A DNA stretch of 41,101 nucleotides from Patescibacteria group bacterium UBA6130. Lineage in GTDB: Bacteria; Patescibacteriota; Microgenomatia; UBA12405; UBA6130. This document shows, piece by piece, positions 5,029-18,837 of this stretch. A program made the translations under genes and the position numbers. Positions within the stretch are counted from its first letter, which is position 1. Each line of letters opens with the position of its first letter. The stretch lies in contig DIVO01000050.1 of the NCBI GenBank assembly GCA_002428285.1, positions 9,554 through 50,654 on the forward strand, in the 5' to 3' direction. Under the pieces are notes generated by a model. The model saw only the letters and a list, made by a program, of their open reading frames with translations. It was not told where the DNA came from and did not search any database.

Positions 5029-6831
5029 ATGAATCAGATTGAAGAGATCAAAGCTAAAGTAGATATTGTTGAGATAATTTCCCAAAGTGTAAATTTGAAA
5101 CCTGCCGGAAGAAATTTAAAAGGCTTGTGTCCTTTTCATAGTGAAAAAACTCCGTCATTTATGGTTTCTCCCGAATTGCAAATTTTTAAATGTTTTGGCT
5201 GCGGAAAATCGGGTGATGTGATTACTTTTCTTCAGGAATATGAGCGGATGGATTTTGGCGAGGCTTTGGAGCATTTAGCCCAAATTGCCGGAGTAAAACT
5301 TGAAGGTCAGAAATATTCACCAGACGAGTCAATCAAGAGAAAAATATATGAGATTAATGCTGCGGCAAAGTTTTTTTATCATTTTCTTTTAACCAAACAT
5401 GAGTCAGGCAAAAAAGCTTTAGAATACGCCCATTCGAGGGGTTTAGATCAAAAAATTATCGAAAAGTTTGGACTTGGCTTTTCTCCTCTAAAACCAGATG
5501 CTCTAGCCAATTATTTGATCAAAAAAAAGAATTACACCAAAGATGAGCTACTACAAACTGGCATATTTTTTACTTCGCAATATTCTGGCAGACAAGAGCT
5601 TTTGGACAGATTTTACGGAAGGCTTATTTTTCCCCTATTAGATCATAGAGAAAATATTGTTTCTTTTGCAGGCAGACTTATTCCTGGATATTTCAAAGAT
5701 GAGGATAAACGAGGGAAATATATTAATGGTCCTGATACTCCTGCTTATCACAAATCATATAATTTATATGGACTTTGGTTGACTAAAGAAGAGATAAGAA
5801 AAAAAGATAAGGCCGTATTGGTCGAGGGAGAGCTTGATTTGATTTCGAGCTGGAAGGCAGGAGTGAAAAATATTGTAGCCATTAAGGGAACAGCTTTAAC
5901 CCAAGAGCAGATTCAGTTAATAAAAAGATTTGCATCAAATTTAACCTTTTCTCTAGATGCCGATTTTGCTGGTGATCAGGCGGCTTTGAGGTGTGTGACA
6001 ATGGCTGACAAAGAGGGGTTGGATATGACAGCAGTTGTTTTGCCCAAAGGGGTCAAAGATCCTGACGACTTGGCCAGACTAGACCCAAAAAAATTAATAA
6101 AGGTGGTTGAAAAAGCTATACCTATTTGGGATTTTGTAATCAATAATGCTGTTCAGAGAAATGGGACCGATACCCCTCAGGGAAAAAAGAATGTCCTGAG
6201 GACGGTTTTGCCCATACTAACCCAAATTGATAATCAAGTAGTCAAAGAAGATTATTTAAAAAAACTATCTCAAACTCTTAACACAAGTTCTCAGGCAGTA
6301 ATGTCTGAGGCTCAAAAAACGATTGTATCTGCACCAAAAAAAGCCAAGGCAAATATTTTGAGTGAACCTCAAGAACCACAAGACAAACAAGACATATTGG
6401 AGGAGTATGTTTTGTCTTTGATTATGCTTAGCGGGAAACCTCAAAATTATCTTGAAAATCTTGAATTTGATAATTTTTTGGTTGATAGAATATATAAGGA
6501 ACTGAAAAAGTATTTGAAAAAGAACAAAAAATTTTCGTCATCTGCGTTTTTATCTTTTTTGTCTGAGGAGCTTAAGCCCAAGCTGGAGAAGATGTTCTTT
6601 GTTTGGGGAGATGATGAAGGCACAAACCTAGATAGGGAATTGAAAAAAATTATTACAGAACTGGAAAGGGTGAAATTAAAAAAGAAACTCAATTTATTGT
6701 CTGCCCAGATATCAGAGTCAGAAGAATCGGGAAAGGATATTAAAAAAAACAAAAACAACAAATCTTTGGAAAAACTCCAGGCAGAGTTTTCCGATCTTGC
6801 CGATCAGCTTTCAAGATTGGACGATAATTAA
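5029..6831 (+). CDS. dnaG: DNA primase
   Basis: CHC2 zinc finger CPFHSEKTPSFMVSP...FKCFGCGKSGDVITF and TOPRIM EGELDLIS...DAD. Followed by rpoD, the classical dnaG-rpoD arrangement. Confidence 0.97.
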   Translation: MNQIEEIKAKVDIVEIISQSVNLKPAGRNLKGLCPFHSEKTPSFMVSPELQIFKCFGCGKSGDVITFLQEYERMDFGEALEHLAQIAGVKLEGQKYSPDESIKRKIYEINAAAKFFYHFLLTKHESGKKALEYAHSRGLDQKIIEKFGLGFSPLKPDALANYLIKKKNYTKDELLQTGIFFTSQYSGRQELLDRFYGRLIFPLLDHRENIVSFAGRLIPGYFKDEDKRGKYINGPDTPAYHKSYNLYGLWLTKEEIRKKDKAVLVEGELDLISSWKAGVKNIVAIKGTALTQEQIQLIKRFASNLTFSLDADFAGDQAALRCVTMADKEGLDMTAVVLPKGVKDPDDLARLDPKKLIKVVEKAIPIWDFVINNAVQRNGTDTPQGKKNVLRTVLPILTQIDNQVVKEDYLKKLSQTLNTSSQAVMSEAQKTIVSAPKKAKANILSEPQEPQDKQDILEEYVLSLIMLSGKPQNYLENLEFDNFLVDRIYKELKKYLKKNKKFSSSAFLSFLSEELKPKLEKMFFVWGDDEGTNLDRELKKIITELERVKLKKKLNLLSAQISESEESGKDIKKNKNNKSLEKLQAEFSDLADQLSRLDDN

Positions 6832-6909
6832 AAAAAGAAAGCAATTATCCATATAAATTGCCAGAAAGGATGTTGATTTAAGTTCAATTTGGTGATATTA
6901 TATTTAAAT

Positions 6910-8001
6910 ATGCCCACCCCAGCTATGGAATTTGCCAAAAACAGAAAGTCATTGTTAGCCTTGGCCAAAAAGCAGGGCTTCTTGACTCAGGATGTTATAT
7001 TGGAAAAAATTGTTTCTCCTCATAAATATATTGAAGAATTAGATAAGTTTTATAACGATTTGTTTGAAAAGGGTATTGATGTATTCGAAGGCATAGATGT
7101 TGAGGATGTTAGAAGCGAAGAAGCAGTTTTAGCGGGAGGAAAAATTCCTGCGTTGTCATTGCTTGCCACTTCCACCTCCACCGATCCTGTAAGAATGTAT
7201 TTAAGAGAAATTGGAAAAGTTCCTTTGCTTTCGGGAGAGGAAGAAGTTACTCTTGCTCAAGAGATTGAGAAGGGTTCTGAAAGAGCTAGAGCAAAACTAA
7301 TTGAGTCGAATTTGAGATTGGTTGTTTCTATTGCCAAAAAATATATTGGCAGAGGTTTGACCTTTTTGGATTTAATCCAAGAAGGAAATCAGGGTTTGAT
7401 GAGAGCTGTAGAAAAATTTGATTGGCGAAGAGGTTTTAAATTTTCTACTTATGCCACTTGGTGGATCAGACAAGCCATTACAAGAGCCATTGCAGATCAG
7501 GCAAGAACTATCAGAATCCCCGTGCATATGGTGGAAACCATGAATAGAGTGTTTAAGACTGTTAGACAGTTGGCGCAGGAAAAAGGCAAGGAGCCGAGTG
7601 TGGCGGAGCTTGCAAAAGCCACAGATCTGTCTGAAGAAAAGATTAATGAAATTTTCCGGATTTCCCAAGACACTACTTCTTTGGCTGCTCCTGTAGGCGA
7701 AGAGCAGGATTCTTTTTTGGGAGATTTTATTGAAGATGTCACTTCTCCTTCCCCCTATGAGGAAACTTCAAAAGAGCTTCTTAAGGAGTCCATCACTGAT
7801 GTATTGACAAGTTTGGATGAAAGAGAAGCTAAGGTTTTGTCCTTGAGGTTTGGCTTGGATGGCGAGCCTCCAAAAACATTGGAAGATGTTGGCAAGATTT
7901 TCAATGTCACAAGAGAAAGAATTAGACAAATAGAAGCCAAGGCTTTAAGAAAACTTAGACACCCTTCGAGAAGAAAAAAACTCCAGGATTATTTAGAGTA
8001 A
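6910..8001 (+). CDS. rpoD: RNA polymerase primary sigma factor (sigma-70 family)
   Basis: Region 2 [54 protein letters not shown]. Region 4 [30 protein letters not shown]. The track ORF begins at 6889 with an alternative start, but ATG 6910 is preferred. Confidence 0.96.
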
Positions 8002-9571: not shown

Positions 9572-9666
9572 CAGTATTATTGGATATCAAACAATATCAA
9601 TCATTTTATTTTTCATAGTGCTTTATAAATATCAGGCAATAAAGTATAATTAAACACAATTGATAT

Positions 9667-9858
9667 ATGGCTAAGATTGAAGAACTTTTGACACTGAAAC
9701 AAGCTGCTCAAATACTCAAAGTTAATGAGCAAACTCTCCGACGTTGGGACATAGAAGGCCGATTAAAGGCTGTTAGAATCGGTTCAAGACGTGGTGTTGG
9801 AGACCGACGTTATAGACCTGAAGATATTAAAGATTATCTAAACAGGCAAAAGAAATAA
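9667..9858 (+). CDS. Small helix-turn-helix DNA-binding protein (excisionase/MerR-superfamily type)
   Basis: LLTLKQAAQILKVNEQTLRRWDIEGRLKAVRIG....RYRPEDI fits the excisionase-family HTH pattern. It lies 17 nt upstream of hsdR. Confidence 0.7.
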   Translation: MAKIEELLTLKQAAQILKVNEQTLRRWDIEGRLKAVRIGSRRGVGDRRYRPEDIKDYLNRQKK

Positions 9859-9875: not shown

Positions 9876-12098
9876 ATGACAGATATAAATAATGCCTCAA
9901 AAGAGGCAGACTCAAGGATTATTGTTGACCGATTGCTTCGAGAAGCAGGTTGGAACATTGAAGATAAAAATCAGGTCACTACAGAAGAAGCAACTCAAGA
10001 CGGCAGGGCCGATTATTTACTTTTAGACAGTCGAAGTCGTCCACTAGCCGTTGTCGAAACAAAAAGGTTCAGCAAAGACCCGTACACCGCCAAAGAACAA
10101 GCGGAAACCTATGCTAAAACGCTCCAAGCCCCGTTTATATTTCTTTCCAATGGTGAGGATACCTATTTTTGGGATTATGAGAAAGCGGACGCAAGGCTGG
10201 TTGATTCATTTTTCTCTCGTTTTGATTTGGAAAGAATTTCTACTTTAAGAAAGTATCAAAAGCCTCTCTCAACAATTCCTATTTCAGAGAAATTCTTTTT
10301 TAAGGGAAAAGAAATTACTGTCAGACCCTATCAAAAAGAGGCTTTGCAAACCATAGATAAAGCGTTAGAGGAAAACAAACGTCGTTTATTGGTTGAGATG
10401 GCAACAGGAACAGGTAAAACACTAGTTGCCGCCATGATGATTAAAAGATTATTTCAGGCAGGATTAGTGGAAAGAGTTTTATTTTTGGTTGACAGGATTG
10501 AACTTGCTAACCAAGCCAAAGAAACCTTTGACGACTATCTTTCTGAATATCCCTCAATTGTTTTATATGGTGGAAAGAGGAGTAAAGAAGGACAAATTGT
10601 TATCGGCACACTTCCTACAATTCAATTCCAGATTGACTCATTTACCAGTGGCTATTTTGATTTGGTAGTGACAGATGAATGTCATCGCTCAATTTATAGT
10701 ATTTATCGTTCCTTGCTTCTCCACTTTGACGCTATTCATATTGGTTTAACTGCCACCCCCAGCAATTTAATTGACAGAAACACATATGAGTTTTTTGGCT
10801 GTTGGAATCCATTAAGTAGAAAGGGAGAGCCAACATATATTTATGGAATAAGGCAAGGCATTAATGATGGGTATCTTGCTCCTTACAAGGTTTACCATGC
10901 TAGGTCAAAGATTTCTTTAGAGGGCATCAATTGGCAGGGAGAAGATTACGAACCGCAGGATTTGGAAAGAACCATTTCTGTTGAAGATAGAAACAAATTG
11001 TTTGTTCAGGAATTTAAGGAAAATGAAGAAAAAAGAGATGGCGACCATCCAAGAAAAACCATTGTTTTTGCCATTACTAAAAGACACGCTTCCCAACTAA
11101 CTAGATTTTTCAATGAAATGTATCCTGAATACAAAGGTAAATATGCCGAGATTATTACCACTGATACTTTTGACCCGCAAAGAGCTATTAAACGCTTTAA
11201 AAAGGAATCTTTGCCAGTTATAGCGGTTTCTGTGGCTATGCTTGATACGGGATTTGACTATCCGGCAGTTGAAAACCTGATGATGTGTCGGCCTACCCGT
11301 TCACCTATCTTTTATCAGCAAATGAGGGGTCGAGGTTCTCGTCTTTGCCCTGAAGTGGGTAAAAATGAATATCTTATTTATGACTTTGTTGGCAATGCAG
11401 AATACTTTAATGATGAAGGCTATAACCCCTTTGAACAGAAGAAAACAGCTATCAGAATGCCAGTAGAAGAAGTCGAAAAAGAGGAGGTTGTTGAGGAACA
11501 AATACCAGAACATATAATTAGGCAGTTTGTCACCATTCCCCTAGGTCAAGCTCACGATGAATGGGTGGAGAGAAAATATATCGAATTTGGACCAGACGGA
11601 GAAAAAGTTGATGCCAGAGAATATAAAGATAAATTTGCCGAAGAAGTAAAGAAGCTAGCTGATACCAACGAAATTATTATTAAACTCAAACAGCTACAAG
11701 ATGTTACTGATGAGGAAGTACAAGAACTGGGCGAACTTCTCAACCACCCCGAATTCTTTTTTAACGAAAACAATTTAAGACAAGCCTATGACCAACCAAC
11801 AGGCAACTTGGTTGATTTTGTTAAATCAGCTCTCGGAATGCACAAGTTCCCGACCAAAGAAGACAGAGTGAGTCAAGCCTTTGACGCCTGGATAATTCAA
11901 AAGAACTTTGCTCCTGAACAAGTCAGAATTTTAAGAATGCTCAAGAATCAATTCTTAGCAGGGAGTAAAGCAGATATTCAAGATTTCAGCCGACCCCCCA
12001 TCTCACAATATGGTGGTTTGCAATATGCCGTAAAAGTATTCGGTGAAGATGGCTTAAAGCAAGTGGTTACCGATTTACAGCAAGGAGTATTTATATGA
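9876..12098 (+). CDS. hsdR: Type I restriction enzyme, R subunit (EcoEI/type IB-like short form)
   Basis: N-terminal PD-(D/E)xK (GRADYLLLD...LAVVETKR). SF2 helicase motifs MATGTGKT, DECHR, GLTATP and QMRGRGSR. A C-terminal helical domain resembles the EcoEI R C-terminal domain. It overlaps the hsdM start by 4 nt. Confidence 0.93.
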   Translation: MTDINNASKEADSRIIVDRLLREAGWNIEDKNQVTTEEATQDGRADYLLLDSRSRPLAVVETKRFSKDPYTAKEQAETYAKTLQAPFIFLSNGEDTYFWDYEKADARLVDSFFSRFDLERISTLRKYQKPLSTIPISEKFFFKGKEITVRPYQKEALQTIDKALEENKRRLLVEMATGTGKTLVAAMMIKRLFQAGLVERVLFLVDRIELANQAKETFDDYLSEYPSIVLYGGKRSKEGQIVIGTLPTIQFQIDSFTSGYFDLVVTDECHRSIYSIYRSLLLHFDAIHIGLTATPSNLIDRNTYEFFGCWNPLSRKGEPTYIYGIRQGINDGYLAPYKVYHARSKISLEGINWQGEDYEPQDLERTISVEDRNKLFVQEFKENEEKRDGDHPRKTIVFAITKRHASQLTRFFNEMYPEYKGKYAEIITTDTFDPQRAIKRFKKESLPVIAVSVAMLDTGFDYPAVENLMMCRPTRSPIFYQQMRGRGSRLCPEVGKNEYLIYDFVGNAEYFNDEGYNPFEQKKTAIRMPVEEVEKEEVVEEQIPEHIIRQFVTIPLGQAHDEWVERKYIEFGPDGEKVDAREYKDKFAEEVKKLADTNEIIIKLKQLQDVTDEEVQELGELLNHPEFFFNENNLRQAYDQPTGNLVDFVKSALGMHKFPTKEDRVSQAFDAWIIQKNFAPEQVRILRMLKNQFLAGSKADIQDFSRPPISQYGGLQYAVKVFGEDGLKQVVTDLQQGVFI

Positions 12099-13609
12099 CC
12101 AAGATTCCAAAACAAGAACTCCAGTCAACCATAGACCAGATTTGCAATAAATTGTGGGCAGCGGGTTTGACTAACCCTATTACTTACATCGAACAAATAT
12201 CTTATTTCTTTTTTCTTAAGATGCTTGAGGAATGGGATAACCAGAAAGCTAAAGAAGCGAAACTTATCGGACACACTAACGGGAATAAGTCCATGTTTGA
12301 GGGAGAAAATGAAAAATATCGCTGGAGCCAATGGACACATATTGCCGACAATACCCAGATGTATAAATTCGTTCGTGATGAAGTGTTTCCTTTTATGGCA
12401 AACCTTCCAGGAACCAATGAGGCAGTTAGGCGGTTCTTTGATGATGCCAGATTTCAAATTCCTGATGGAGTAGTCCTTCGGGATGTTGTCGATAAACTTC
12501 GAGACGTTTCCTTTATCGAGCTCGATGCTGATGTTAAAGGTGATTTATACGAATATCTTCTAAACCAACTCACAACTTCAGGCAAAGCAGGACAATTTAG
12601 AACTCCAAGGCATATTATTCGAACCATTGTTCAACTAACCAATCCTCAAATTGGTGAAACAATATTAGACCCCGCCAGCGGTACAGGTGGTTTTCTCTTA
12701 GGAGCTTACGAATGGATAAAACTTTGCAATTCAGACCCTAAAAATATTGAGGAATTAGTTAATGGTGGTGGACAGATATCCAAAAAAGGCCCAGGAGACA
12801 AGCTCAATCCTTCACAGTGGCAATTCCTACAAAGTGGAACGTTTTACGGCTTTGACGTTGACGCTGCAATGGTCAAGATTGCCACTATGAACCTTATTCT
12901 TCATGGTTTGGATAAATCGCAAGTAATAAGGCGTGATGCAGTGGCTGGTAGTCCTGATGAGTGGGAAGACCGAGAATATGACGTGATTATCTCCAATCCT
13001 CCATTTGCGGGAACTATTAATAAGGAAAGGGTTAGAAAATATTTACCTGTTCAATCAACTGATACTACAACCTTGTTTTTAGGATTGATGATTGATGCCC
13101 TAAGACCAGGCGGAAGAGCAGGGGTAATTGTCAACGAAGGAATCCTTTTTAACCGAAACAAGGCCTCACAGGAAGTAAGACGTTATCTCATGGATAAAAG
13201 AAATCTTGTAGCAGTTGTTTCTTTGCCTGGTGGTATTTTTCAACCTTATTCTGGAGTTAAAACAAGTGTTTTGTTCTTTAACAATGATGGCAAGAAAACA
13301 GAAAAGGTATGGTTTTATGAAGTTCAACAAGATGGGTTTGGACTTGCAACTCAAAGAAAACCAACTCCAGATAAAAATGACCTTCCAGACTTGATTGAGA
13401 AGTGGTCAACCAAACCAGAATCTGCAAACAGTTGGTTTGCAACCAAAGCACAGATAGAAGAGAACAACTTTATTATTTCCTCATCTGCATATAAGCCGTT
13501 AACGAAGGATGACTTTGTCTACCGAGACCCAAAAGAGATTTTCAAAGAAATTCAGGAATTAAATAAACAATCCCAAGAGCAATTAAAGAAAATTGAAAAA
13601 TTTATATGA
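12095..13609 (+). CDS. hsdM: Type I restriction-modification system, N6-adenine DNA methyltransferase subunit
   Basis: Motif I DPASGTGGFL, motif IV ISNPPFAG, and an HsdM N-terminal helical domain. Confidence 0.95.
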   Translation: MTKIPKQELQSTIDQICNKLWAAGLTNPITYIEQISYFFFLKMLEEWDNQKAKEAKLIGHTNGNKSMFEGENEKYRWSQWTHIADNTQMYKFVRDEVFPFMANLPGTNEAVRRFFDDARFQIPDGVVLRDVVDKLRDVSFIELDADVKGDLYEYLLNQLTTSGKAGQFRTPRHIIRTIVQLTNPQIGETILDPASGTGGFLLGAYEWIKLCNSDPKNIEELVNGGGQISKKGPGDKLNPSQWQFLQSGTFYGFDVDAAMVKIATMNLILHGLDKSQVIRRDAVAGSPDEWEDREYDVIISNPPFAGTINKERVRKYLPVQSTDTTTLFLGLMIDALRPGGRAGVIVNEGILFNRNKASQEVRRYLMDKRNLVAVVSLPGGIFQPYSGVKTSVLFFNNDGKKTEKVWFYEVQQDGFGLATQRKPTPDKNDLPDLIEKWSTKPESANSWFATKAQIEENNFIISSSAYKPLTKDDFVYRDPKEIFKEIQELNKQSQEQLKKIEKFI

Positions 13610-14310
13610 ACTATAAATTTATTGCAACCCAGTTTGGAGAGGCAGTTAAATACGATACAACCGTTAACGAAGTAAGCAGAACTTTCAATGCCCTCACCAA
13701 CCTCAAAAGGAAAGATTATGTCAATGATGCAATTACTTCAGCTCGTTCAGGATTGATTTATTCATGGGTGATGACTATTGGCGACTCAAACCTTGAAGAA
13801 TCAGACAAATGTGAACTTGTAAGGCAGGCAATAAATACAATAGTGATAAACGACAAGGTAAAAGAAAAGCTGTTGGGATTACTGGGGACATCGAGATGTT
13901 TACCTAAAACGAATTCGTCTAGTTATGTGAACTCAAGCAGGCTAGATGAAATTAAAGCGTTGAATTGTAAAAATTTTGATTTATCTAGGTTGATAAAACT
14001 TTGTGACGAGTTAAATATGTCTTTCGAAAATAAGTGCTATTTTTCTGTTGCAATACTGGTTCGGTCATTATTAGACCATGTTCCGCCAATCTTTGGAGTA
14101 GGCTCATTTACGGAACTGGCCAATAACTATCAAGGGACAAGGAGTTTCAAGGCACAAATGCAGCATCTTGAATTGTCATCTCGGAAAATAGCCGACTCAT
14201 ATTTACATACACAAATTAGAAATAAGGAATCGTTGCCCAACTCAACGCAAGTGGATTTTTCAAACGACCTAGATGTGTTGTTAGGCGAGGTGTACCGATT
14301 ATTAAAATAA
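13606..14310 (+). CDS. Uncharacterised 234-aa protein inserted between hsdM and hsdS
   Basis: ATGA overlap with the hsdM stop and a 1-nt gap to the hsdS start. No catalytic motif recognised. The C-terminal half is helical (..LVRSLLDHVPPIFG...SSRKIADSYLHTQIR..). Confidence 0.7.
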   Translation: MNYKFIATQFGEAVKYDTTVNEVSRTFNALTNLKRKDYVNDAITSARSGLIYSWVMTIGDSNLEESDKCELVRQAINTIVINDKVKEKLLGLLGTSRCLPKTNSSSYVNSSRLDEIKALNCKNFDLSRLIKLCDELNMSFENKCYFSVAILVRSLLDHVPPIFGVGSFTELANNYQGTRSFKAQMQHLELSSRKIADSYLHTQIRNKESLPNSTQVDFSNDLDVLLGEVYRLLK

Positions 14311-14311
14311 T

Positions 14312-15478
14312 ATGAATAACTGGCAAGCTAAGAAACTTGGAGATATAACAGTAATAAATGGTGGAGGAACACCTCCTACAAGCCATGCTGAATATTTTAA
14401 TGGCGATGTGCCTTGGTTTACTCCTTCCGAGATTACCTCTGGAACAGTTTCCGTTTTAACTAATAGTCAAAGGCAAATTACAGAAGAAGCAACGAAGTTC
14501 TCTAAGGTAGCCGAGCAAGGAACGGTTTTATTGTCTAGTAGGGCAACTATAGGAAATATTGGAATAGTAGCTAATCGTTCAACTTACAATCAAGGAATTA
14601 AAGGAATAACCCCAAAAGAAGATTTAAACTCATGGTTTCTTGCTTACTGGCTATTAGCAAACAAAAAAGGATTAGAAAAATCATCATTTGGAACAACATT
14701 TAAAGAATTAAGCACAACAGCTCTAAAAAAATTTGATATTACAATTCCGCCTATTTCTGTTCAACAAAAAATTGTTGAGCGTTTAGACTCAATCAGAAAA
14801 TTGCAGGAATTAAACCAAAAAGAAATTGAAAAGGCAGAAGAATTATTTGACTCATTATTGAGTGTTAAATTTTACCCCAATAAAGCATATAAAAGGTTAA
14901 ATTTTGAAGATGTCGTTACTTTTAAGAGGGGGCCTTTTGGTGGTTCACTAAAGAAAGAAATATTTGTCTCAGACGGTTTTAGAGTTTATGAGCAAAGAAA
15001 TGCGATATATGATGATTTTACTAACTGTAGGTATTTTATTACTGAAGAGAAATATAAAGAGATGATTGGTTTTGCTGTTAAAACTGGGGATTTAATAGTT
15101 AGTTGCTCGGGGACAATTGGAAAGGTTGCCTTGGTACCGAATAAAGTTTCTCCAGGAATCATAAATCAAGCCTTACTAAAAATTACTCCAAAAATAGATA
15201 TTGTCCTCAGCGAATACCTCAAATATTTAATTCAGAGTAGAGATATGCAGATTAAAATGTTTGGAAATGCCCGTGGTTCTTCTATTAAAAATATCGTTTC
15301 GATTAAAGAGATAAAAAAACTTGTTTTATCTCTACCATCTATTAAAGAACAACAGCAAATTGTTAAGGAGTTAGATTTTGTAGCAAATATACATGAGACT
15401 AAAATTCTATTAAAGAAATCAATATCGCAAATCTATGAAAATAGCCTCATTAAGGCAATGAAAGGAGAAATGGTTTAA
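14312..15478 (+). CDS. hsdS: Type I restriction-modification system, specificity subunit
   Basis: 388 aa with two target-recognition halves. Each begins with a ..G..PP../..GPFGG.. type segment and ends in a conserved helical spacer (PPISVQQKIVERLDSI... and LPSIKEQQQIVKELDF...). Its position follows hsdM. Confidence 0.9.
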   Translation: MNNWQAKKLGDITVINGGGTPPTSHAEYFNGDVPWFTPSEITSGTVSVLTNSQRQITEEATKFSKVAEQGTVLLSSRATIGNIGIVANRSTYNQGIKGITPKEDLNSWFLAYWLLANKKGLEKSSFGTTFKELSTTALKKFDITIPPISVQQKIVERLDSIRKLQELNQKEIEKAEELFDSLLSVKFYPNKAYKRLNFEDVVTFKRGPFGGSLKKEIFVSDGFRVYEQRNAIYDDFTNCRYFITEEKYKEMIGFAVKTGDLIVSCSGTIGKVALVPNKVSPGIINQALLKITPKIDIVLSEYLKYLIQSRDMQIKMFGNARGSSIKNIVSIKEIKKLVLSLPSIKEQQQIVKELDFVANIHETKILLKKSISQIYENSLIKAMKGEMV

Positions 15479-15480
15479 TA

Positions 15481-15807
15481 ATGAAAATTATTTATAAAAC
15501 AAAATTCTATTGCATGTTTTGTAAAAAAGAACTCCCGTTAGATGTATATGGTAGTGATGTTAGTGCGAGTGAAGATAAGGAATTTGATAAAGAGGTAAAA
15601 GAGTGGGGTGAGCATTACCATTGGATAGATGCACACAGGAGATGTGCTATATGTGGCGAATTGGTTACCTCTGATGACTTGGAGTTGTTAGTAAACGATG
15701 GGAAAACTAACATTCACGAAGAATATCTCAACCAAACCTATGAAAAAAGTCATAAAGGACATTTGTTAACCGTTCATGGAAAATGCATTAAAGAAAACAA
15801 CTTATGA
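15481..15807 (+). CDS. Uncharacterised small zinc-ribbon-like protein (108 aa)
   Basis: Two CxxC pairs (CMFC, CAIC) plus His-rich HYHWIDAH and HGKC. It starts 2 nt after the hsdS stop and overlaps the next ORF by 4 nt. Confidence 0.65.
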   Translation: MKIIYKTKFYCMFCKKELPLDVYGSDVSASEDKEFDKEVKEWGEHYHWIDAHRRCAICGELVTSDDLELLVNDGKTNIHEEYLNQTYEKSHKGHLLTVHGKCIKENNL

Positions 15808-17108
15808 AGGTTGAAGATAAACCAAAATATGTTAAGGAAGCAAGGGAGTTGCAAGACTCAATAAATGTCGATTCTCTAATTGATGACCCCAACGAACTTT
15901 CTACATTGAGGAAAATTAGCCGCTTGATAGCTATTTTTACCAATTTTTCTTATAACGATGGCCAAGAACTGAAACGTCTATTATTAGAATTCCAGAAGTG
16001 GTCAAGACGTAGCACGAGTGTAGGTACTATTCGAAACAGAGCTGTTGACATGCTCCAATTCATTAGCCAAAAAATTGAAGAGATGGATATTTATGTAATA
16101 GATGAACCAATAAAAAAGAACCAGGATAGAATTGTCAGTAAACTAAAGAATGAGAAATATTGGGTTCAACAGAATCTGGAAGGAAAAGACTTACATATTA
16201 TCGTTGGAGAAAGAAGTGCTAAACAAGGAGAGCACATACATGTTATTAGCGACTCAGATACGGGTGAAATTAGGTTCGACTCCAAAGACCAGCAACCAAG
16301 TGAACTATTAGAACGAGTGGTTAGTTTAGTAACTAAGAGTGGAACTACTATCGGGGTAACTCAAAAAGGGATTAAAACAACAACTGAATTTATCGAGACA
16401 AATATAGAAGGTAATCCCAATAAAGATATACCGATTCTTTATGCAACAGGAGTGCGTCGAAGTGGTGGGTCAAAAGGCCATTTCGAGTATGTCATGATTA
16501 AAAATATTGGAAAGGAAATTGCCCTAGATATTCATTGGGGAATCAGAGGATTTGCTTATGAATGGAGACCGACGGAAGAACCTTTTGAGTTGGAGGCTAG
16601 CAAGGAGCGAGAGGTTACCTATCCAATTTCGGAAGAAAAGGTATTTAAGGAGGACATTCCTGAGCTAAACGTGATAATGGAGTATAAAGATGTTAACGGC
16701 AATGCTTATTTCACTCGAAGAGAGCTTAAACAAATTAGAGTATCATCTGGGGCATTCTTTAAACTTAAAGCTGATACATTTCATCCTCCGTCCATATTAG
16801 TAGATGATGGCCTTGAAATAGTTTCTGAGCCAATTCGAACTGGGGATAGAGTCGAGGCCACCTTTAAGATTGGAGTTCAAGGTCAGACTAAGCTGGTAAA
16901 AATAGGGTTGAGTGGCAACCTAATAGCTGTTCTAGACCTACAGACAGGTGATTTATTAAGACAGGCAATACTTGAGCTTGCCCACAGGAAAATACGAAAG
17001 ATGGTTAAATTAGATAGCCTTGCGGATTATAGTTTTACCACCCACGACCTACCAGAAGGTCATCCAGTAGGATTTGGTGCTTACGTTCTCCTAAGAGATT
17101 CCATATAG
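15804..17108 (+). CDS. Uncharacterised 434-aa protein, last gene of the hsd transcription unit
   Basis: Long clean ORF with a helical N-terminal third and a beta-rich remainder. No P-loop, nuclease or methylase motif recognised. Confidence 0.7.
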   Translation: MKVEDKPKYVKEARELQDSINVDSLIDDPNELSTLRKISRLIAIFTNFSYNDGQELKRLLLEFQKWSRRSTSVGTIRNRAVDMLQFISQKIEEMDIYVIDEPIKKNQDRIVSKLKNEKYWVQQNLEGKDLHIIVGERSAKQGEHIHVISDSDTGEIRFDSKDQQPSELLERVVSLVTKSGTTIGVTQKGIKTTTEFIETNIEGNPNKDIPILYATGVRRSGGSKGHFEYVMIKNIGKEIALDIHWGIRGFAYEWRPTEEPFELEASKEREVTYPISEEKVFKEDIPELNVIMEYKDVNGNAYFTRRELKQIRVSSGAFFKLKADTFHPPSILVDDGLEIVSEPIRTGDRVEATFKIGVQGQTKLVKIGLSGNLIAVLDLQTGDLLRQAILELAHRKIRKMVKLDSLADYSFTTHDLPEGHPVGFGAYVLLRDSI

Positions 17109-17913: not shown

Positions 17914-18837
17914 ATGCCGATTTATAAACAGACCGATAGCAAGCTCATTCCTATTAAAGAAAAGAAGGTAGGTCTTGAAAAAACCCTACAAAATCTAGTT
18001 GAAGCCAACTTGAGTGATGTTTTTGCTTTGAATTTTATTGCTGCGGAATTTCCTTTAAACAATCTTCGGATTGATACGCTGGCTTTTGATGAAGAAGCTA
18101 AGGCTTTTGTGGTTATTGAATACAAGCGAGATAGAAACTTTACAGTAATAGACCAGGGCTATGCTTATCTTGCCCTGTTGCTAAACAACAAGGCAGATTT
18201 TGTCCTTGAATATAATGAGAAGACTAAAAAAAATTTGAGAAAAGACGATATTGATTGGTCACAGTCTAAGGTGATGTTTGTTGCTCAGTCTTTCACAAAA
18301 TACCAGCAGGAAGCTATCGGATTTCAGGATTTGCCAATTGAACTTTGGGAAGTAAAGAAATATGATGAGCGTTTAGTTTCTTTTAACCAGGTAAGAGCGT
18401 CTGAAAAAAGCGAGAGCATAAAAACTATTACTAAGAATAAAGATATTCAGCAGGTGTCTAGGGAAATTAAACAGTATTCAGTTAAAGACCATATCAAGTC
18501 TAATTGGAGCAAGTCTAGGGAGCTATTTGATGAGTTTTCCCAGCGGGTTTTGGAGCTTGACACTCGTTTTGAGACAAAACCAGTAAAATCCTATATAGGT
18601 TTCCGTATAGGAAATAAAAATGTAATAAATGTTAAACCTAGAAGTTCTAAAGTGGTAATCGAATTTTTAAGAACTCAACCTCAGGATTTGAAAGACCCAG
18701 AAAAGAGAGTAACTTATTTTAAAAATAGCTTCAAGTATTACAACCAGCACGTAAGTTTATTCAGTGTTGAAAATGAAGATGATATTGACTATGGTATATC
18801 TCTTGTAAAACAGGTTTATAGGAAATTTACCGAGTAA
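17914..18837 (+). CDS. PD-(D/E)xK (NucS/DUF91-like) nuclease-fold protein with a DUF5655-like C-terminal domain
   Basis: N-terminal RIDTLAFDEEAKAFVVIEYKRDRN...VIDQGYAYLALL fits the D...ExK restriction-endonuclease-like core. The C-terminal ..SYIGFRIGNKNVINVKPRSSKVVIEF.. resembles DUF5655 (family name from memory). Confidence 0.65.
   Translation: MPIYKQTDSKLIPIKEKKVGLEKTLQNLVEANLSDVFALNFIAAEFPLNNLRIDTLAFDEEAKAFVVIEYKRDRNFTVIDQGYAYLALLLNNKADFVLEYNEKTKKNLRKDDIDWSQSKVMFVAQSFTKYQQEAIGFQDLPIELWEVKKYDERLVSFNQVRASEKSESIKTITKNKDIQQVSREIKQYSVKDHIKSNWSKSRELFDEFSQRVLELDTRFETKPVKSYIGFRIGNKNVINVKPRSSKVVIEFLRTQPQDLKDPEKRVTYFKNSFKYYNQHVSLFSVENEDDIDYGISLVKQVYRKFTE

Follow-up and report, generated by a model that had tools for sequence, protein, structure and literature searches.

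A candidate DUF4145-like HEPN RNase gene between hsdM and hsdS of a patescibacterial Type I restriction-modification operon

In a Type I restriction-modification (R-M) operon of Patescibacteria group bacterium UBA6130, an open reading frame (ORF) encoding 234 residues, gene X, stands between the methyltransferase gene hsdM and the specificity gene hsdS. The gene was studied in a stretch of 41,101 nucleotides (nt) of contig DIVO01000050.1 (assembly GCA_002428285.1, positions 9,554 to 50,654, forward strand), which is called the window here. X starts with ATG, occupies window positions 13606 to 14310 on the plus strand and, by its ORF, its AlphaFold2 model, its homologues and the selection acting on it, encodes a two-domain, all-alpha protein. 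We put at about one-half the probability that X is a self-contained antiviral effector, a passenger in the R-M operon that joins a DUF4145-like HEPN ribonuclease (RNase) module to an N-terminal sensor.

In such an effector, the C-terminal all-alpha domain of about 130 residues would carry the active-site pair R193/H201, helped by the invariant R153, D157 and H158, and the helical N-terminal domain of about 100 residues would be an exchangeable sensor or adaptor. X would share a transcript with hsdM and hsdS, and its translation is probably coupled to theirs, so that production of the R-M system would always entail production of X. The protein would stay latent until the N-terminal domain recognises an infection cue, which could be a phage protein or could arise from a failure of R-M. 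HEPN domains would then pair or oligomerise to form a composite active site and cut RNA, and this cleavage would stop translation and abort the infection, backing up restriction as a second line of defence. RAZR and other abortive-infection proteins with HEPN domains are the model on which the RNase activity, the latency, the trigger and the abortive outcome are proposed.

Gene X is inserted at the hsdM-hsdS junction and is under purifying selection

The ORF listing of the window places hsdM at 12095-13609, X at 13606-14310 and hsdS at 14312-15478. The start of X overlaps the stop of hsdM by 4 nt (ATGA), as confirmed by reading the sequence, and a single nucleotide separates the X stop codon (TAA) from the ATG of hsdS. 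An earlier interpretation made from the DNA letters alone (the sequence-only reading) had described a 234-residue ORF at exactly this junction with an overlapping stop and start, and both the ORF listing and the sequence agree with it. It had also called the position unusual, which is only partly right. X is indeed an insertion, because in the related EcoEI-type operons L100 and L101 hsdS follows hsdM directly with nothing between them. However, the insertion of genes, HEPN genes among them, into R-M operons is a known phenomenon, catalogued in 2013 (PMC3710099), and HEPN-type genes are well known from within R-M operons. HsdM relatives in 400 genomes of the phylum were only about 40% identical, and among them no version of this operon with a genuinely empty site turned up.

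Compared with its 82%-identical orthologue in locus L087, X showed a nonsynonymous difference (pN) of 0.10 and a synonymous difference (pS) of 0.86, which is saturated, giving a pN/pS of about 0.12; in the same comparison hsdM gave a pN of 0.11 and a pS of 0.78. X is under strong purifying selection, about as strong as that on hsdM. The sequence-only reading had considered that X might match a non-defence family, or be an orphan with a ratio of nonsynonymous to synonymous substitution rates near 1. No such family matched, X has a large family of homologues and is no orphan, and the selection is clearly purifying.

Between the window and L087, the identity was 91% for HsdR, 81% for HsdM, 82% for X and only 26% for HsdS, so that X is part of the conserved block and hsdS is the part that has been swapped. 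X carries no R-M domain in Pfam or PADLOC scans and is not constant in related operons, and it thus lacks the marks of a core subunit of the Type I system. The gene is single-copy in its 805-kb, 95%-complete genome, and 60 relatives belonging to the same family and order lack it. This patchy distribution indicates horizontal acquisition, a pattern that is typical of defence genes.

Invariant residues of the X domain are co-linear with those of DUF4145

The conserved C-terminal domain of X (residues 105-234; positions 13918 to 14307, plus strand) is a DUF4145-like HEPN candidate by its conservation, its domain model and its profile alignment. Residues ~105-234 are 50-65% identical across phyla that include Patescibacteria, Omnitrophota, Chloroflexota, Cyanobacteria, Bacteroidota and Proteobacteria. 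We found that E135, R153, D157, H158, P160, P161, S180, S191, R193, D197, H201, R205, E208, Q215, D221, D223 and E228 are invariant or near-invariant, and the invariant polar set among them (E135, R153, D157, H158, R193, D197, H201, E208, Q215, D223 and E228) is a pattern typical of enzymes. Across the 40 most diverse domains, R193, D197 and H201 do not vary.

The sequence-only reading had rested its suggestion of an HEPN/Abi-like RNase on the segment SSRKIADSYLH, which is present, with R193 at 14182-14184 and H201 at 14206-14208, and had judged its R-x7-H one residue too wide for HEPN. This objection does not stand, as the spacing is that of the essential R146 and H154 of RAZR (PMC13017515). 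The DUF4145 domain of RAZR is a proven RNase in which alanine mutants of these residues lose defence (PMC13017515, Nature 2026). The invariance of R193-KIADSYL-H201 (14182 to 14208, plus strand), its place in the DUF4145 alignment and its RAZR-like spacing suggest that R193 and H201 are likely the catalytic pair. What the reading had overlooked is a second motif, R153-SLLD-H158 (14062 to 14079, plus strand; LVRSLLDHVPP), which is followed by the invariant P160 and P161 (RxxLDHVPPIFG). Both R-x4-H and R-x7-H are invariant or near-invariant in alignments of 40-88 relatives. As judged from the alignments, R153 and the family-specific H158-x-PP form a second invariant patch, whose spacing is the canonical R-x4-H.

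The sequence-only reading had named DUF4145 among the families for a profile-profile comparison. In this comparison, a broad DUF4145 profile was made from 17 diverse DUF4145 ORFs of the same phylum and 9 members of a zinc-ribbon subfamily. Using hhalign, we found that the X domain aligned with the broad profile over 96 columns with a score of 31.8 (probability 57%, P 1e-4), and with its gap-trimmed version with a score of 33.6 (probability 75%, P 2.4e-5). Reversed profiles scored 15.7-17.7, and 150 block-shuffled profiles had a mean of 13.6, a standard deviation (sd) of 2.8 and a maximum of 26, which puts the real score about 7 sd above the shuffled null. The alignment sets R193, D197 and H201 on the R, N and H of R-x2-G-N-x3-H, the typical form in DUF4145 proteins (R-K-I-A-D-S-Y-L-H in X), and R153 on the conserved alpha-2 arginine of DUF4145 ('R..lE'). 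Six polar positions that are invariant in X have counterparts in DUF4145 in the same order and at almost the same distances: R153/D157, about 40 residues and R193-x2-A-D-x3-H201 in X, and R-x3-E, about 42 residues and R-x2-G-N-x3-H in DUF4145. A search with hmmsearch in both directions gave the same register at noise-level scores.

DUF4145 (PF13643; a clade of Anantharaman et al. 2013, PMC3710099) resembles the X domain in being all-alpha and of similar length. The two have in common, in the same order, a Y-x-x-R-I linker, a glutamate in alpha-1, an alpha-2 'R..l[ED]' and R-x2-[GA]-[ND]-x3-H. Both are C-terminal behind diverse N-termini that include zinc ribbons, and frequent occurrence in R-M operons is common to DUF4145-type genes and X. 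Unlike DUF4145, the X domain has the additional invariant motifs H158-x-PP-x-FG, NNY-G-KSFK and QVDFSNDLD, a longer loop after the histidine and a far higher cross-phylum conservation.

Several results weigh against the assignment to HEPN. With a narrow profile of the DUF4145 zinc-ribbon subfamily the alignment was weak (P 0.01-0.05) and covered the first half of the domain only, and the half that carries R-x7-H scored at noise on its own (P 0.7); a usable signal came from the broad profile only. No curated HEPN or DUF4145 model matched X or 88 relatives, even at E<=10, and the PADLOC models, those for PD-T7-4 included, gave no match to X. When the model of the domain was compared with PDB and BFVD by Foldseek, nothing fell below E=0.39 and generic helical bundles came on top; in the AlphaFold model, both histidines sit at the C-termini of helices. 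In addition, HEPN toxins are not usually as conserved as X is between phyla (50-65%).

No meaningful match to X came from NCBIfam, PADLOC or PHROGs, or from Pfam, even with the threshold relaxed to E<=10. The Pfam DUF4145 model (gathering score 23.1 bits) found no match at E<=10 in X, the 88 relatives or four divergent plasmid members, and true DUF4145 proteins of the same phylum score 26-64 bits with it. For Abi2/AbiD/AbiF, X matched neither Pfam Abi_2 nor the PADLOC Abi models. A weak Pfam match to DUF5677 was found in 4 of the 88 relatives scanned, and no weak HEPN match recurred among the 88.

The AlphaFold2 models are all-alpha for both full-length X (predicted local distance difference test (pLDDT) 89, predicted template modelling score (pTM) 0.60) and the conserved domain alone (pLDDT 87, pTM 0.81). 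The best PDB match of the full-length model in Foldseek, at E 1.8, is noise. The weak Foldseek list from PDB contains HepT (7bxo_F, 6m6w), TT1696 (1ufb) and Csx1 (8y7g) at template modelling scores of 0.3-0.48, amid generic bundles.

It is decidedly unlikely, in our estimate, that X is not an HEPN RNase at all but has a new fold or function, its likeness to DUF4145 being that of a convergent helical bundle. X could then be another enzyme that targets nucleic acids or nucleotides, or a protein without catalytic activity that regulates modification enzymes or helps to assemble them. The missing curated match, the lack of a significant structural neighbour in PDB or BFVD, the hhalign probability of only 57-75%, the conservation that is unusually high for an HEPN toxin and the absence of DHVPPIFG, NNY-G-KSFK and QVDFSNDLD from DUF4145 would all fit such a protein. 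They are set against the six co-linear polar positions, the distance of the real hhalign score from the shuffled null, weak HEPN matches that recur in independent searches and a genomic company that is typical of HEPN Abi genes. The profile support for a relationship with DUF4145 is moderate, not decisive, and we propose with moderate confidence that the X domain is a divergent relative of DUF4145-type HEPN domains that so far lacks a family model. The comparisons that the sequence-only reading had proposed are mostly favourable to its suggestion of an HEPN/Abi-like RNase. Because the Pfam DUF4145 and HEPN models miss X and the fold searches are not significant, the RNase activity itself is given here as a prediction.

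Sequence-profile searches of PDB with the X domain gave matches at E 0.1-0.7 only. One of them, 'Dandelion-hepn' 9wx2_A (E 0.32 and 0.14, in the same register as the DUF4145 alignment), was the sole match with profile A3 and was not counted as evidence on its own. With the trimmed profile A5 it was one of six equally weak matches, the others being unrelated, which also counts against the assignment. Nothing relevant was found in the literature on 'Dandelion HEPN'.

One conserved domain follows many unrelated N-termini

A word-indexed search returned 643 homologues of X, and an exhaustive search of 1.84 billion representatives returned 1,802 protein clusters at E<=1e-3, of which 745 reach E<=1e-30. 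The conserved domain is C-terminal in every member, behind N-termini of 43-392 residues, and the N-termini of 129 family representatives fell into 84 BLAST-unrelated clusters. Four divergent plasmid members (26-37% identity; Streptomyces and Sphingobium included) keep RAILDHVPPxFG and [R/K]-x2-[G/A]-D-D-x2-H. Family members occur on 14 plasmids, all annotated 'hypothetical protein', and the family had no match in a phage collection. No account of it was found in the literature on DUF4145 or on abortive-infection genes embedded at hsdM/hsdS. What is new is the family itself, which is very large, lacks a Pfam, NCBIfam or PADLOC model, is unusually conserved, has extremely diverse N-termini and has no characterised member.

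The N-terminal domain of X (residues 1-100, five helices; positions 13606 to 13905, plus strand) is subfamily-specific and variable, and is a putative sensor or adaptor. It is confined to about 43 close relatives, and a search for the same domain fused to other effectors returned the close subfamily only. DUF4145 proteins and other HEPN proteins of the Abi kind are known to combine a conserved effector with a swappable N-terminus (PMC3710099).

The architecture resembles that of RAZR/PD-T7-4, a ring-activated zinc-finger RNase. Both proteins place a specificity domain, a putative one in X, before a C-terminal DUF4145-like domain in one chain, both have the R-x7-H spacing (R146/H154 and R193/H201), and in both the N-terminal part is the most variable. 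In RAZR, the N-terminal zinc-finger domain sets phage specificity (PMC13017515). Unlike RAZR, X has a helical, Cys-free N-terminus, with no CxxC pair in residues 1-100 and no zinc finger, and RAZR is not described as R-M embedded. Two relatives, P0015 and P0101, do have a RAZR-like architecture with an N-terminal DUF2321 zinc ribbon, and two or more CxxC were found in only 8 of 246 family N-termini.

Close relatives of X accompany R-M systems of several types

We examined 13 independent places, which are loci that code for proteins with the same N-terminal domain as X. In 7 of the 13 contexts the gene lies in or directly beside a Type I, II or III R-M system, and 3 more adjoin SIR2, ApeA-HEPN or Shedu-type genes. 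A survey of such junctions had been suggested by the sequence-only reading, and it uncovered orthologues at the same Type I hsdM-hsdS junction as in the window in L087, L001 and L095. L087 is arranged identically to the window; L001 has an extra 236-residue membrane-type gene beside X at the junction; and L095 has five inserted genes, among them X, which is joined there to a DUF2321 zinc ribbon. The junction between M and S genes in the R-M lineage of the window carries 1, 2 or 5 passengers. Elsewhere, the gene lies directly 3' of Type III mod-res genes (L081-86 and L091-92) or of a Type II methylase/endonuclease cluster (L090), adjoins a SIR2_2 gene (L093), lies two genes from an ApeA-HEPN gene (L089) or is next to a Shedu-type SduA_C gene (L126). 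In L125, L127 and L128, no known defence gene is close by and a tightly coupled gene of 185-221 residues, winged helix-turn-helix (wHTH)-like, lies upstream.

The L001 operon (DATKWK010000017.1), hsdR-hsdM-(236 aa)-X-hsdS, is on a contig binned as 'Candidatus Bathyarchaeia archaeon', and its HsdM is 81% identical to that of the window, which points to either a recent inter-domain transfer or mis-binning.

In the wider family, 80 loci from species-representative genomes were surveyed by tblastn with the HsdR, HsdM and HsdS of the window, and a Type I system was near the family member in only 2 of them. This count spoke against an R-M link of the family as a whole, and that idea was rejected. 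The neighbours in the wider family are very diverse, and clustering them gave no universal partner gene.

HEPN-type effector genes inside R-M operons, as X is proposed to be, include PrrC/RloC, Abi2/AbiD/AbiF, ApeA and EC042_2821, and such embedded genes add a second tier of defence, in which RNA cleavage follows restriction (PMC3710099). One alternative is that X works like PrrC, its RNase being held inactive by the bound HsdM/HsdS complex and freed when a phage anti-restriction factor disables that complex. The contexts speak for some connection, as the N-terminal domain of X tracks R-M (7/13 for the subfamily in or directly after R-M, 2/80 for the family at large), X is tied to hsdM by the ATGA overlap and to hsdS by 1 nt, HsdR, HsdM and X are kept as a block while hsdS is swapped, and PrrC/EcoprrI and other R-M-embedded HEPN genes are a precedent (PMC3710099). 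However, the same N-terminal domain accompanies Type I, II and III systems, which have no subunit in common, and also occurs without R-M (L089, L093 and L125-L128), with a small wHTH-like gene before it, so that masking by one R-M complex is unlikely. Unlike the anticodon nucleases PrrC/RloC, in which an N-terminal ABC/Rad50-like ATPase precedes a C-terminal HEPN domain, X has no ATPase domain in Pfam or NCBIfam scans and no nucleotide-sensing domain, and unlike Abi2 and ApeA it matches neither Pfam Abi_2 nor HEPN_Apea. Between the window and L001, X has also changed faster than HsdM (60% and 81% identity), which speaks against a tightly co-evolving interface. We therefore regard release from an R-M complex as unlikely.

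On a speculative view, to which we give a low probability, the X domain would define a very broad unrecognised class of RAZR-like single-protein immune sensors, in which a near-invariant RNase sits on many dozens of unrelated N-termini. The N-terminus in the window would then monitor R-M of Types I-III in general, for example via a shared cofactor, substrate state or anti-restriction strategy, and not one R-M protein.

A further alternative, very unlikely in our view, is that X is the toxin of a toxin-antitoxin or addiction module, a growth-arresting RNase that stabilises a mobile island or the R-M cassette instead of sensing phage and is neutralised by a small neighbour protein or by transcriptional repression. 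The non-R-M loci L089 and L125-L128 do have the wHTH-like gene of 185-221 residues upstream, at a gap of -4 to +1 nt; in the wider family the gene upstream is mostly close by and on the same strand; members are found on the 14 plasmids and adjoin integrases and transposases; and the operon in the window begins with an HTH_17 regulator. Yet the R-M-embedded copies (the window, L087, L081 and L090) have no adjoining candidate antitoxin, the upstream partners are not conserved between loci, blastp giving small clusters only, and hypervariable N-termini suit sensing better than a fixed toxin-antitoxin interface.

If X is the self-contained effector proposed here, at least 1,800 'hypothetical protein' clusters would become a recognisable defence effector family, with a reach over candidate phyla radiation bacteria, Cyanobacteria, Bacteroidota, Chloroflexota, Proteobacteria and Streptomyces plasmids, and PADLOC, DefenseFinder and Pfam would gain a model. 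The family would amount to a naturally occurring collection of more than 80 unrelated sensors, each N-terminal to one conserved RNase, suited to the study of how single-protein sensors acquire their triggers. The R-M-linked subfamily would be a simple system in which to ask if second-line RNases are coupled to restriction mechanistically or by co-inheritance.

Other genes beside X relatives

In locus L007, a RAZR-like gene with a zinc ribbon and DUF4145 (944-1606; Pfam DUF4145 E=2e-17) ends 3 nt 5' of an X-family gene (1610-2281), an arrangement that would place two HEPN-type genes in tandem. A 173-residue gene downstream of the X homologue in L090 (3083-3604) has the HEPN-like motif 'RLIRNAFAH', and an overlapping 193-residue gene upstream of the homologue in L089 (5430-6011) has 'RVIRNRFH'; neither has a Pfam match. 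X-family genes may often be paired with a second HEPN-like gene.

Outside R-M, small proteins with a common winged-helix-like C-terminal domain of about 80 residues precede X-family genes (blastp E 1e-5 to 1e-9), namely L127:1297-1962, L128:269-931, L005:3138-3812 and the genes two before the family member in L044, L047 and L056. A conserved gene of 163 residues lies directly upstream of the X-family gene in six loci. These two kinds of upstream protein, both absent from the window, may be partners or regulators.

Layout of the operon and its surroundings

The order of the operon is HTH-hsdR-hsdM-X-hsdS, all on the plus strand, and no plus-strand terminator-like site was found between hsdM, X and hsdS. 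The operon opens with a gene for an HTH_17/MerR-like regulator of 63 residues (9667 to 9858; Pfam HTH_17 E=6e-12), with promoter-like sites at 9622-9716. This gene lies directly 5' of hsdR, which it also precedes in the orthologous locus L087, and may be an operon regulator like the R-M-controlling repressors (RptR, PMC12255303). The hsdR gene (9876 to 12098) encodes an EcoEI-type Type I restriction subunit of 740 residues (Pfam ResIII 3e-39, EcoEI_R_C 5e-30 and HSDR_N; PADLOC REase_I 4e-90). The Type I methyltransferase HsdM has 504 residues (Pfam N6_Mtase 5e-55 and HsdM_N 7.5e-19; PADLOC MTase_I 9e-148), and the specificity subunit HsdS has 388 residues with two target-recognition halves (Pfam Methylase_S 2e-45).

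Two co-oriented, overlapping ORFs follow hsdS, one of 108 residues with two CxxC pairs (15481-15807) and one of 434 residues (15804-17108), and neither matched Pfam, NCBIfam, PADLOC or PHROGs. At the same position L087 has an SMC_N/AAA_23-PHP gene, a PDDEXK gene and a GmrSD gene. Since the window and L087 carry different genes after hsdS, the operon tail appears to be a slot for swappable cargo.

Further downstream, a protein of 307 residues (17914-18837) that carries DUF5655 matches the PADLOC candidate defence family PDC-S18 from end to end (E=3e-102), which indicates that the defence island reaches past the R-M operon. The island in the window lies just 3' of dnaG-rpoD (5029-8001). In L089, which comes from another organism (RpoD 67% and DnaG 39% identical), a homologue of X with 57% identity also lies just 3' of dnaG-rpoD (L089:1658-4566), without R-M, which suggests that this flank is a common integration hotspot for defence cargo.

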